Source: an uncultured archaeon
GTDB taxonomy: Archaea > Iainarchaeota > Iainarchaeia > Iainarchaeales > Iainarchaeaceae
Assembly: GCA_964577555.1 (NCBI GenBank)
Contig: CAZNZM010000001.1
Span: 55,178 to 87,177 of the forward strand
Direction of reading: 5' to 3'
DNA: 32,000 nt
The notes beneath the pieces were generated by a model. That model saw nothing but the letters and a program-made list of their open reading frames with translations, was not told where the DNA came from and did not search any database. Shown in pieces: positions 14,501-15,839 of the stretch. The translations under genes were made by a program, and so were the position numbers. Within the stretch, counting starts at the first letter, position 1. Each line of letters starts with the position of its first letter.

Positions 14501-15839
14501 TTCTGGCGGAGGCGGCGGTGGAAGCATTTTTACAACAGAGGAACAAGTAAGAACTTTTTTCCAAACAGTTGAAAAATTCGAACTTGTAAGGGGAAAAGAC
14601 CAGGAATTCAAAGTAAGAATAAAGAATCCTTTCCCTGACAAAGAATTGAGAAACATAACTGCTGAAGTAACAGGGTTATTGTCAAAATACTTGAACATTG
14701 AAAACCCTGAAATACCATCGCTAAAACCCGACGAAGAAAGCTTTCTAAAAGTGAAAATAGTGGCGCCAAAATACTTTGAACCTGGAAGGCACGAATTGAC
14801 TTTCACAATAAAAGGCGTATTGTCGGTAAAAAAAAGAAACTCGATTGTTGACACTCCATTTACATTCAAAACAAATGTAACTTTATTCATAAGAGACATA
14901 ACAAAAAAAGAGGCTGCGGAAATAATTTCAAAAGCAAAATCAGAAATAGCTGAATTGGTTTCAATGGGTTTGAATGTTTCGGAAATGCGAAATATTCTTG
15001 AAGAGGCGGAAATAAATATAGATGCAAACGAATACGACTTGGCGGCCAACAATGCAAACACCATATTAGCATTGGGCAAAATAGCAAAGGAAGCCGTACA
15101 AGAAATGAAAAAACTTGACGAACTAATCAGCAAAAGCGAAGAAGAAAGGATTGACATTCCAAAAACAAAAAAAATGAGGGAATTGGCAAAACTTGCGCTT
15201 GACAGGGGAGACTTCCAAAATGCGTTGGATGTGCTTAAAGAAGCTCACCTAACACACAGCCTTGAAACAAAAGGCGCTTTCAATTATGGTTATTTCATAA
15301 TGCAAAACAGCTTTGCCATATCAACAGGCGCGATTGCAGGAATACTGTTCTTTATAGTTTCACTAATAAGTTTGAAGAGATTCTCGCTTAAAAACAAAAT
15401 AAAAACACTCAAAGCCGAAGAAAAATTGCTGATTGAACTAATAAAAGAAACCCAACATCAATGCTTTGTTGCTGGAAAAATAAGTATGAACGAGTACCAA
15501 GATGCGTTAAACCATTATGAAAAAAAATTCACGGAAGCAATAGAAAAAATGATTGAAGCTGAAAATGAACTTATAAACCAATTAAACATCAAATCAAAAA
15601 GAACAAAACTGGCTGAAGAAAGGGAAAGAATCTTAAACGAATTGAAAGAAACCCAAAAACAATACTTCAAAGAAGGGTTGATTGAAACAAGAATGTATCA
15701 GGCAAAAATTGAAAATTTGACAAAAAGGCTGAATGAAATAGAAAAAAACATAACATATGAAGAAGCTATAAGTTCAATAAGAAAAAACAGTGGTTGGTTA
15801 AGCATCTTCTGGAGGGTTTATTATAAAATCTTCAAATAA
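8520..15839 (+). CDS. giant (2439 aa) secreted, membrane-anchored surface protein: signal peptide, parallel beta-helix array, Ig/CARDB-like modules, Cys4 module, Ser/Gly linker, helical stalk, one TM helix, cytoplasmic coiled-coil tail
   Basis: One uninterrupted ORF with a TTG start 8 nt after GGTG. N-terminal signal LILLIFLTVLPSVAHA. About 26 turns with the motif G-x-[IF]-x-[DN]-N-x-[FI], closed by the typical beta-helix exit motif DPFLADNSDRNFLL. CARDB-like strings are present (INITNTGDAPITFSITS; VTNKGNEDANNVVLAWTLPEGWT). The TM helix ISTGAIAGILFFIVSLISL is encoded within 15311-15374. N-x-S/T sequons are very dense. Confidence 0.9.
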   Translation: MKNLYQILQKLILLIFLTVLPSVAHAGISCGDTNFVCVVTGTNTTSAKFVDGNTYVINGAVIFQNSGVDLNIEPGAVIKFVPSSSSLTITSSARINANGNATKRIVFTSCRDQTVGANTSTIPSCSGNPLDQDYSTAISISSTAQMLPSDSLSFMSIKFATTGISLAKYIGSIHDINFSRFGRRTGSGNAIAISTQTGTEIYNNSFDINSNNTSGGVNAIQISSDYNGSIHDNNFNSRLASYGVYVSSGNFTGSFHDNNVTALASHGMVVTTSNDFNSSIYKNKFDINGNGGNYTGVYRSGSFYGNIYDNNFDIKMNAFGFYTLGTGNFDANIYQNSFTGLNLPRGIILTNSGYSKAKIYSNIFDMNGFTTSYGYAIQISNDFNGIINDNNFHLKQFMYGIYHNGASFYGNVVDNNFGLDRAYAIYHNSPIIYYSDINRNIFYSKTPKYATYVRTNYGYSLYQYSTGGTFPGSFCENTFQNFFNNGIVYTNGTFSGSFCKNKITDANMTIPYLFYVGSNFSGSIIDNNFSNMIGNYTNASYFLFGESYSGEIRKNIVFDFNNLLTTSYFIRLSGTPTTGNITDNNFTKIVGTSSLYLIAYTGIGTTYTNIQDNNMTNFRLNVTPYYQSSGTMAGTFRRNKINDLNTLNNAVINTSGVFSGAVYDNNFSNLYNTRVFYQYLTGSFTGDFNANIIDNLYFSTGGIETMSIAGFFSGKIYSNKISNITNSNIIYSTANFSGSIYNNKISNITGSNAIYSNAAFSGNIYNNLFVKNNSAAHFIYHASSNAFSGSIYNNTFTNFRTGTSYGVRNTGSFTGNILRNVFTHGSVALSGTFSGQVGYNAFFSITTIGGSANQHVGDQNTQTGFSNDPFLADNSDRNFLLNTDNNGGQKLVNTGNIDSTEFFMKRTTLRSNKLDTGIIDLGYHYDQNALYVIVQSPNGGEIISGTENIDFNVESGFGSSNEIFVTLSYSPFTSGGTQITSNSLNAFVCSSGPVYVCSYSWDSSDITDGNYYIILSAMYQDNNTSDSSDQNFTLLSIPKFALRTYLGSKPRGFFTKGQDVNIVVYTTTANPLINIIEARTGNILVSNASMSPTSPSSDMNGYAYSYKVDGNEGWYDARISGKTFEHIFYVTNAWQNRYVDNNGIVVPFSIPVDVTEPGKVQRWFAPIQLNLDFNYLSNPNGVRVIDYNGDTYVEIPSQTYDLNYSGTKASSGKVAFMASFDLGETRNFFANYSRQQNPKTYYPDMNLSFIDSNYIVENSSLKVEIDLNLGGNVTRIFNKKGTNTNLGGATPSVLSPESKSGIYTYTSYSVSNPNYSLDVNGGIFSKIRVWARTGQMDYNTTYYFYAKQPYYETDINSKPVSTQNWSYYYDDYKVMDSNKFLVFSYNSGGSVTNYDLNSNGSGSTLTFGDANYWGVYNRNTSDAFGTMFINRYSTTGESISSKFYDETDYDYWTRQMYSGIVTEADRFNSRIGHNLFNPWNRLGDLNSDFISAKYGLAKSIGTTQTNDLNAPVFVDWNSTPYDANDSADLNVWAVINDNLQVDYVDINISGPNINIQTRQQYNDANIVAYYVIDSNTLNAGTIDVNFRATDIAKNSTIKSWQISVSDLKAPKVWKITLTPDDNASIDPDSNITFDANINEYTGVSQVKLFIRYYNETTQGWSDWNAISMNFSSQPSDYNYNYTLTYNIPADLNKHFQYKIYTKDTQGNDANSDTNNFYAYIDYTWGLAPTNFGTKTEALDANITIGDINITNTGDAPITFSITSNWDPGKNVFFNLQPGSTPYEITVNAGQTASVNTKVTTKTTERSDSLTITFTPKISSAQPQNATSSGTIISLAGGPFMFVEIPTYNQSVLQGDTGKSYVAKVTNKGNEDANNVVLAWTLPEGWTITSGSSSVSISTLGIDEYLFNSIVVSISESAQSGTVTLTATATPDGNELKTRSESVNVVVVSTQTSQAPTCSDGIQNHGETGIDCGGPCPPCGGGVVGTSSASSSSSSSGGGGGGSIFTTEEQVRTFFQTVEKFELVRGKDQEFKVRIKNPFPDKELRNITAEVTGLLSKYLNIENPEIPSLKPDEESFLKVKIVAPKYFEPGRHELTFTIKGVLSVKKRNSIVDTPFTFKTNVTLFIRDITKKEAAEIISKAKSEIAELVSMGLNVSEMRNILEEAEINIDANEYDLAANNANTILALGKIAKEAVQEMKKLDELISKSEEERIDIPKTKKMRELAKLALDRGDFQNALDVLKEAHLTHSLETKGAFNYGYFIMQNSFAISTGAIAGILFFIVSLISLKRFSLKNKIKTLKAEEKLLIELIKETQHQCFVAGKISMNEYQDALNHYEKKFTEAIEKMIEAENELINQLNIKSKRTKLAEERERILNELKETQKQYFKEGLIETRMYQAKIENLTKRLNEIEKNITYEEAISSIRKNSGWLSIFWRVYYKIFK
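9030..11060 (+). other. right-handed parallel beta-helix repeat region of the giant protein (about 26 turns), including a 72-bp near-tandem duplication at 10659-10802
   Basis: Recurrent GSIHDNNF / GNIYDNNF / GSIYNNKI type turns from residue 171 to about 845. GKIYSNKISNITNSNIIYSTANFS is followed directly by GSIYNNKISNITGSNAIYSNAAFS. Confidence 0.85.

Follow-up and report, generated by a model that had tools for sequence, protein, structure and literature searches.

The 32,000-nucleotide stretch of DNA analysed here (the window) is C1:55178-87177 of a 0.98-Mb, 34 % G+C genome of a DPANN archaeon. It carries three co-directional genes, for a giant surface protein of 2439 residues, a small membrane protein of 308 residues and a KaiC-like ATPase. 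The two membrane proteins share a conserved unit of about 50 residues placed directly after the transmembrane (TM) helix, present twice in the giant (copies M1 and M2) and once in the 308-residue protein (M3). That this module is a real, distinct domain leaves us in very little doubt; it is a new, uncurated family of a known general kind, the short C-terminal helical hairpins. Gene context suggests docking of the KaiC-like ATPase as its best-supported function, and we give a probability of roughly 0.45 to the reading in which the tail hairpins form the cytoplasmic platform of a complex of giant and small protein and the ATPase docks there.

DPANN archaea, whose genomes are tiny, are believed to spend their lives attached to other cells, and how they build and control their surface is largely unknown. 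The module marks at least 1335 protein clusters of DPANN surface proteins, giants of 2000-3500 residues among them. It opens an uncharacterised system of the cell envelope to study through short peptides and a single small ATPase, all of which a laboratory host can express, and the domain model that it supplies can serve to annotate proteins at present called hypothetical.

The module, its copies and predicted fold

A hidden Markov model (HMM) built from the giant's two copies only recovers the 308-residue protein (E 7.4e-7, 33.8 bits) and a surface protein of 593 residues encoded outside the window (E 2.5e-4, 27.3 bits). These are the sole non-self matches below E = 1 among 10,407 six-frame open reading frames (ORFs), and the top score from 1000 shuffles of each target is 13.9 bits. 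A profile from the three strong copies finds the 593-residue protein (C1:116092-117870) at E 1.5e-6 and no other match in the genome below E 0.25. A first reading of the window, made from the sequence only, had proposed a helical juxtamembrane tail recurring in both membrane proteins, with two copies in the giant and one in the 308-residue protein; leave-one-out search and shuffles bear this out. The peptides it quoted are all present in the translations, its coordinates being off by about 20 nucleotides at most (exact positions: M1, 15429-15530; M2, 15630-15731; M3, 16570-16674). Further copies exist both in this genome and in 35 of 61 related genomes, and the scores of 27-34 bits are clearly above those of shuffled sequence.

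The same reading held that three proteins share the module. The number is right, the third being the 593-residue surface protein and not, as proposed, a soluble protein of 206 residues (31201-31287). With all filters switched off and a limit of E <= 10, neither the small profiles nor one of 52 copies matches the latter in a search of the genome, and the segment scores 5.0 bits when taken alone. Absent from it are the fully conserved Gln, the Tyr that precedes the equally conserved Phe, and the Gly of the turn. It forms the N-terminus of a soluble protein with no TM helix ahead. We rejected it as a fourth carrier; as a cytoplasmic partner of the tails it is likewise unsupported. The near-identical basic linker noted in the two membrane proteins (KIKTLKAEEKLL and KIKSLELEKKIL) is real, with 8 of 12 residues identical, but it is the start of the first module helix rather than a separate linker.

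For the anatomy of the module 52 copies were extracted from this genome and 20 related loci, and columns were counted over 51 aligned copies. The alignment of 52 columns is almost gap-free (consensus KLLKKEEKELLELIKNLQTQYFVKGSISKKEYDEKMEKYESELAEIEEKI). Every extracted copy has a strong TM helix 4-16 residues upstream; the carriers have an N-terminal signal peptide, as in type I membrane proteins, and hold the module near the C-terminus. Gln20 and Phe24 are present in 51/51 copies, as is Tyr, Cys or Phe at position 23, and Tyr34 is found in 50/51. Conservation is also high at Lys17 (43/51), Gly27 (40/51) and position 29, which is Ile, Met or Leu in 47/51. Q-x-x-[YC]-F-x-x-G-x-I-x-x-x-x-Y, the core of the pattern put forward from the sequence alone, is thus the true signature. 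Typical helix N-cap residues (Ser, Pro, Asp, Glu or Thr) occupy position 30, and a hydrophobic stripe runs through positions 38, 41, 45, 48 and 52.

Helix A is predicted to be continuous with the TM helix and to end at Q-x-x-[YC]-F. The predicted loop is x-x-G-x-[IML]-[S/P/D], and helix B, starting with x-x-x-Y, would carry the stripe [ML]-x-x-Y-x-x-x-L-x-x-I. AlphaFold2 (AF2) models agree with this helix-loop-helix fold in both contexts, with predicted local distance difference test (pLDDT) values of 85-97. The model of the giant's tail, based on seven orthologues, has a pLDDT of 79 and a predicted template modelling score (pTM) of 0.58. In M1 a long helix extends from the TM segment to QHQCFV and is followed by the loop AGKIS and a second helix (pLDDT approximately 88-90). 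In M2 a linker leads to a helix ending in KQYFK, then the loop EGLIET, another helix and a short terminal amphipathic helix. The model of the 308-residue protein, based on 18 orthologues, has a mean pLDDT of 89 and a pTM of 0.53, with helices at 218-252 and 259-307 on either side of a loop at 253-258 (VKGSIP); over the module pLDDT is 93-97. We place the module in the cytoplasm because it starts with a Lys/Arg-rich segment after the TM helix and because fused, multi-pass relatives exist. In the family of the 308-residue protein it is the most conserved region, with a mean pairwise column identity of 0.42 against 0.27 for the stalk, and Q248, F252 and R274 make up three of only four invariant columns in the 18 orthologues.

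Of 61 genomes from the same order, 35 are matched by a profile of four copies (97 matches in all); each has one to five copies, located without exception at the end of open frames 300-2700 residues long. Searched against 1.84 billion proteins, the 51-copy profile retrieves 377 cluster representatives at E <= 1e-10, a number that rises to 1335 at E <= 1e-3. Named loci found with the alignment of the giants' tails belong to Candidatus Iainarchaeum, Nanohaloarchaea, Woesearchaeota, Pacearchaeota, Nanoarchaeota, Aenigmatarchaeota and Micrarchaeota; judged by these matches the module is present in at least seven DPANN lineages, and it is borne by many otherwise unrelated ectodomains. Scans of whole proteins, of the tails alone and of the 51 copies against Pfam and NCBIfam return no family, only scattered weak coiled-coil matches, and no Pfam family is matched by more than 3 of the 51 copies. 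A PDB sequence search with the module profile gives nothing below E 0.4.

Subtypes, fusions and gene neighbourhood

The three copies of the window are not interchangeable. Over 28 giants and 18 small proteins sequence identity is 42-46 % within a module type and 22-25 % between types; M1 copies from different DPANN lineages are 46 % identical, as against 22-25 % with M2 and M3. Each type has its own signature: Q-x-x-C-F...K-M-S-M-x-E-Y for M1, Q-x-x-Y...G-x-I-E-T-R-I-Y for M2 and A-Q-x-x-Y-F...E-x-x-Y-x-I-R...I-R-D-I-x-R-Q for M3. On these comparisons M1, M2 and M3 represent three versions that are old and not equivalent.

Among the top 150 representatives approximately 117 have the order TM-M-M of the giant and approximately 25 the order TM-M-M-TM-TM-M, which is a giant tail fused to a complete small protein. 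In the fused proteins M2 leads into a second TM helix, then into an external stalk resembling that of the 308-residue protein, and finally into a third TM helix and M3. Some relatives thus have all three modules on one polypeptide (TM-M1-M2-TM-stalk-TM-M3). One fused protein is annotated as Candidatus Aenigmatarchaeota. The fused forms, and also the Aenigmatarchaeota locus L076, have a full second TM helix at the position of the giant's C-terminal peptide. A search for related loci with one fused protein (P0050) found no relative. The split into giant and small protein in the lineage of the window is old. That the two proteins belong together is evident from their paralogy (BLASTP E 1e-12, the 308-residue protein aligning with giant residues 2130-2363 over stalk, TM helix and tail), from the natural fusions and from the pairing of their genes, orthologues of the 308-residue protein coming after giants in 15 loci from several DPANN lineages.

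Linkage to KaiC-family genes was judged from the fetched loci rather than from genome-wide distances between all module and KaiC matches. Two types of cassette emerge. Cassette A, as in the window, consists of giant, 308-residue protein and KaiC-like ATPase. It is present in four genomes of the same order (G002, G030, G032 and G051) and in 13 loci overall, including Aenigmatarchaeota, Micrarchaeota, Pacearchaeota and AR19 (L088). The position of the ATPase gene varies: it lies downstream, upstream (L083, from Pacearchaeota, as is L085) or on the opposite strand (L091, from Micrarchaeota), and in L076 both small protein and ATPase are on the opposite strand. Across DPANN lineages the cassette A ATPases are 56-88 % identical and the giants approximately 30-60 %. 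Seven of 61 relatives (G000, G001, G002, G027, G030, G032 and G051) possess an orthologue of the ATPase (identity of at least 61 %), and these seven coincide exactly with the genomes that have complete double-module giants. A partial match exists in G040, a genome without a module match, and the remaining relatives hold only KaiC paralogues of 36-42 % identity. On one contig of G032 (C3; L013/L014 and L071/L074) two double-module giants, of 2656 and 2743 residues, lie approximately 12 kb apart, with the small paralogue and the KaiC-like ATPase after the first giant only.

Cassette B surrounds the gene of the 593-residue module protein (C1:116092-123114, outside the window), which adjoins the gene of a DUF7504 protein and lies 4 kb from those of two KaiC ATPases. 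In relatives the locus encodes two or three single-module proteins of approximately 960, 830 and 410 residues. In 13 of 16 fetched loci of this type the single-module genes lead directly into the genes of the DUF7504 protein and/or the 353-residue KaiC ATPase, and most exceptions lie at a contig edge. A type IV pilus-like set (ATPase, two TadC-like genes and pilin) is located just upstream of cassette B, at approximately 108-113 kb. Type B module proteins (C1:116092-, L017, L019 and L020) also carry [FY]-W-L-R-G-x-D/N directly after the signal-peptide cleavage site, for example in AWDVFWLRGED, DSIFWLRGND, ETVYWLRGNA and ENVFWLRGND.

Function and competing explanations

What might such a module do? 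Our principal argument is that two different cassettes each have their own KaiC-family genes; from this we infer that the module proteins are functionally coupled to KaiC-family ATPases. The sequence-only reading had named the adjacent ATPase as a possible partner of the tails, and the gene context of both cassette types lends strong support to the link, the physical contact being a further step that we infer. In molecular terms, the giant and the small protein would form one membrane complex in which the hairpins of M1, M2 and M3 build a cytoplasmic helical platform. The co-encoded KaiC-like ATPase, presumably a hexamer as are other KaiC-family proteins, would dock on this platform, and ATP binding, hydrolysis or autophosphorylation inside the cell could be coupled to the assembly or the state of the giant. 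Alternatively, events at the surface might be reported inward by way of the platform. The single-module proteins of the second locus would act likewise with a set of their own, namely a DUF7504 and coiled-coil protein, two KaiC ATPases and a degenerate KaiC. The module is in this sense probably an inner handle by which a motor or switch in the cytoplasm is linked to the giant surface proteins. A more ambitious proposal, which we offer tentatively and regard as doubtful, is that giant, headless paralogue and ATPase constitute a single envelope-spanning device conserved in DPANN archaea, the platform docking a hexamer whose nucleotide state or autophosphorylation would control, or be controlled by, the adhesin-like giant outside.

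Such an arrangement would have partial parallels. ArlH of the archaellum motor and the Cir proteins of Haloferax are archaeal single-domain KaiC-like ATPases that work through partners. As with ArlH, a KaiC/RecA-type ATPase is here encoded with an envelope machine and presumed to act on it, and the window ATPase weakly matches ArlH/FlaH models, although it stays below every NCBIfam cut-off for the named subfamilies. Unlike the archaellum locus, the window cassette contains no archaellum genes, and ArlH binds the ATPase ArlI, not the tails of surface proteins. On the outer side the giant resembles Sulfolobus SlaB and tetrabrachion-type stalks, which are archaeal surface proteins anchored in the membrane by a C-terminal TM helix: like them it combines a glycosylated ectodomain of large size with a helical stalk and one TM helix at the C-terminus. 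Those anchors are not known to have a conserved folded cytoplasmic domain or a dedicated ATPase gene, and a profile search of the PDB and Foldseek reveal no match in sequence or fold between them and the module.

Several observations weigh against docking of the ATPase. KaiC-family genes are frequent, nine being among the matches listed in this 0.98-Mb genome, so that some proximity is expected by chance. Several double-module giants (L067, L071, L079-L081, L084, L086 and L089) have no KaiC gene in the fetched flank. Gene neighbourhood is moreover silent on which part of a membrane protein, if any, the ATPase touches. In the AF2 models pTM is modest (0.53-0.58), so that the packing of the helices is not established; a Foldseek comparison of both AF2 models with the PDB finds generic helical bundles only (best E 0.15 and 0.21), the neighbours being four-helix bundles and none of them significant.

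The main rival reading, in our view unlikely, is that the tails bind only each other, the hairpins of giant and small protein, or of neighbouring copies, forming homo- or hetero-oligomeric bundles that fix the surface proteins into a lattice or complex, and that the ATPase acts elsewhere in the same pathway, for example in secretion, glycosylation or regulation, with no contact to the tails. The amphipathic helices with their regular hydrophobic stripe speak for such bundles, three non-equivalent subtypes have long been maintained and the giant tail is naturally fused to the small protein; the AF2 tail model is also like four-helix bundles, with Foldseek probabilities of 0.84-0.89 but E > 0.1. 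Binding of tail to tail leaves unexplained, however, why each of two unrelated cassettes has its own KaiC-family genes and why the cytoplasmic tail is more strongly conserved than the stalk. In addition the only published oligomerisation experiment on SHOCT, a look-alike domain (PF09851), was negative (PMC3581485).

The resemblance to SHOCT itself calls for closer consideration, as the module had been described from the sequence as SHOCT-like. SHOCT domains are approximately 30 residues long, lie within 50 residues of the C-terminus and consist of two amphipathic α-helices without indels, the short turn between them being marked by a strongly conserved Gly; in helix 2 the aromatic residue is immediately preceded by a strongly conserved Glu (PMC3581485). 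The module too is a short, mostly C-terminal unit of two helices without indels, joined at a conserved Gly (AF2 places the loop there in M1, M2 and M3). The ends of M3, M2 and the single-module copies are 7-45 residues away from the C-terminus; those of M1 and of the internal copies in fused proteins are not. Both families have the turn G-x-[ILV]-[ST]-x-x-x-[FY] and many N-terminal partners, often after TM helices. The differences are nevertheless considerable. The module has approximately 50 residues against 30, it is strictly juxtamembrane and tied to KaiC-family genes, and it has an invariant Gln and Phe (Q-x-x-Y-F) ahead of the turn with no counterpart in SHOCT (PMC3581485). The conserved Glu is missing as such, column 33 being Glu in only 9/51 copies, with Ser, Ile, Lys and Thr about equally frequent.

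PF09851 (gathering score 27 bits) has no match at E <= 10 in this genome, although the same search is positive in control genomes and in 41 of 151 from the phylum, and at the same threshold it detects none of the 51 module copies. The tails of the two window proteins give no match either. A direct alignment (hhalign) of the module with 14 canonical SHOCT domains, a narrow subfamily from the same phylum as this genome, gives a local score of 17.8 (P 5.7e-4, probability 29.5 %) for a target that was preselected for its likeness, and sets the Gly, the Ile and the aromatic residue in register. None of 300 column shuffles in either direction reaches this score (mean 8, standard deviation 2). Since SHOCT had been preselected, what this demonstrates is a shared turn motif and not homology. 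We read the shared motif hydrophobic-x-x-G-x-hydrophobic-Ncap-x-x-x-aromatic as real; it may reflect either distant common origin or convergence on the same way of capping a helix. The likeness of the turn stands, membership of PF09851 does not, and the module should not be filed as SHOCT.

Might it still be a true, highly diverged and extended member of the PF09851 superfamily, with the generic role of SHOCT? We rate this as less likely still than binding among the tails. The in-register alignment and the shuffles speak for it, as do the C-terminal position and two-helix build of both units, and in two frames of approximately 800 residues from relatives (L050 and L057) the same residues are weakly matched both by PF09851 (approximately 22 bits) and by the module HMM (13 bits). 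Yet P is too weak for a search of all Pfam, the PF09851 model is blank for genome and copies alike, and a turn of the form G-x-hydrophobic-[S/T/D/P] is a common helix-capping solution. True homology would be compatible with either ATPase docking or tail-tail binding, and it would give SHOCT, whose function remains unknown, its first consistent genomic partner.

Weak SHOCT-like repeats occur close by in some relatives. DUF7504/coiled-coil proteins of approximately 800 residues (L051 on G005:C34, L059 on G016:C117 and L022 on G010:C31:12063-12122) end in repeats such as KLDALNEAYDSGIISKESYAKGKTRLEKLL, which PF09851 scores at 17-22 bits, below its cut-off. Their genes come directly after module genes in G005 and G010; L059 is like L051 by sequence only. 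The 808-residue protein of the genome studied here has no such repeats. Two other frames of approximately 800 residues from the same order (L046 on G070:C14 and L055 on G113:C12) carry, after a TM helix, a SHOCT match close to threshold (26 bits) together with a long coiled coil, and their tail L-T-K-I-N-x-L-H-A-R-G-K-I-x-x-E-E-Y is a juxtamembrane helical tail distinct from the module.

We consider it improbable that the tail, instead of being a docking site, has a topogenic or sorting role, in which the machinery of insertion, secretion or quality control would read it as a signal for stop transfer and retention. It does always follow directly after a TM helix with Lys and Arg at its start, and the variety of unrelated ectodomains that carry it would suit such a role, but positive-inside signals do not need a 50-residue fold with invariant Gln, Phe and Tyr, and position-specific subtypes and double copies on the giants would not be expected of a generic signal. 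Finally, similarity due to nothing but coiled-coil or low-complexity composition, to which the richness in Lys, Glu, Leu and Ile and the weak Pfam coiled-coil matches might point, is hardly credible in view of the shuffle scores, the invariant residues, the helix-breaking Gly loop and the fixed place after a TM helix, which together rule out a generic coiled coil.

If the three genes do prove to form one envelope-spanning device the interest of the system rises accordingly: it would represent a previously undescribed kind of transmembrane coupling, possibly employed in host contact by ectosymbionts.

The three-gene operon and other features

The features are listed in Table 1. PolD, Orc1/Cdc6, a Hel308-type helicase and FttA are also encoded in the window.

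Table 1. Features of the window and of cassette B (positions are those of the window)
Feature	Position	Strand	Basis
Giant type I surface protein, 2439 residues	8520..15839	+	ORF and translation; orthologues across DPANN
TM helix of giant (FAISTGAIAGILFFIVSLISL)	15312..15374	+	Hydropathy 2.37 over 19 residues; within AF2 helix 30-83 of the tail model
Module copy M1 (KIKTLKAEEKLLIELIKETQHQCFVAGKISMNEYQDALNHYEKKFTEAIEKM), Cys before the invariant Phe	15396..15551 (profile extent)	+	HMM matches
Module copy M2 (RTKLAEERERILNELKETQKQYFKEGLIETRMYQAKIENLTKRLNEIEKNI), subtype G-L-I-E-T-R-x-Y	15600..15752 (profile extent)	+	HMM matches
C-terminal amphipathic/hydrophobic peptide of giant (GWLSIFWRVYYKIFK)	15792..15836	+	Orthologue alignment A3; AF2 helix 192-204
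Headless paralogue of the giant C-terminus, 308 residues: signal peptide, helical stalk, TM helix, one module	15856..16782	+	BLASTP; orthologues
TM helix of 308-residue protein (ILIGIILPLIIGIIF)	16462..16506	+	Hydropathy; AF2 helix 200-216
Module copy M3 (KIKSLELEKKILNEEKKKAQNNYFVKGSIPENVYKSKMQVYSDMEREITREL), 308-residue protein	16540..16695 (profile extent)	+	HMM of M1 and M2 alone
Single-domain KaiC-like (RecA-superfamily) ATPase, Lys/Asn-rich N-terminal extension; candidate cytoplasmic partner	16779..17699	+	PF06745
Cassette B, gene after that of the 593-residue protein: 808-residue protein, degenerate KaiC-like DUF7504 domain and long coiled coil			
Cassette B: 353-residue KaiC ATPase, N-terminal UBA-like three-helix domain, motif G-x-S-x-E-E-A			
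Cassette B: 243-residue KaiC ATPase			
Cassette B: 197-residue degenerate KaiC			

The giant consists of a signal peptide, an ectodomain of β-helix and Ig-like parts that matches Pfam NPCBM_assoc/DUF11, a helical stalk and one TM helix, behind which a cytoplasmic tail of approximately 155 residues carries the two modules. The TM helix stops nine residues ahead of the first of these. The protein is closed by W-x-x-[VI]-x-Y-K-[IV]-x-K-stop in seven orthologues, with W197, Y201 and K205 invariant (alignment A3). In all giants the motif E-T-K-G-x-[FI]-N is invariant approximately 12 residues ahead of the TM helix (window 15222-15290 and orthologues, alignment A3), and as a search pattern this is specific enough to pull giants from seven DPANN lineages.

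The gene of the 308-residue protein follows that of the giant after 16 nucleotides. Its first canonical start, TTG at 15856, yields a signal peptide without a positively charged n-region. The frame continues upstream (window 15802-15915) with F-I-I-K-S-S-N-K-Q-K-A-R-N, which would give a typical n-region, and ATT and ATA codons at 15820-15825 in this frame overlap the last codons of the giant. Orthologues from other lineages begin M-K/N-K-K. The true start may lie upstream of the TTG, or translation may be coupled to the stop of the giant.

The start of the ATPase gene overlaps the end of the 308-residue gene by four nucleotides. Its product matches PF06745 with E 9.3e-47 and 159.8 bits (cut-off 26.6), and the Walker A motif GPGSGKT is present in the translation. 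Residues 1-55 are rich in Lys and Asn, and the ATPase of the Candidatus Aenigmatarchaeota locus L076 (7992-9680, minus strand) has an N-terminal extension of approximately 290 residues that is extremely rich in Lys and Arg. It seems that the cassette ATPases share, as a family, a basic and disordered N-terminus.

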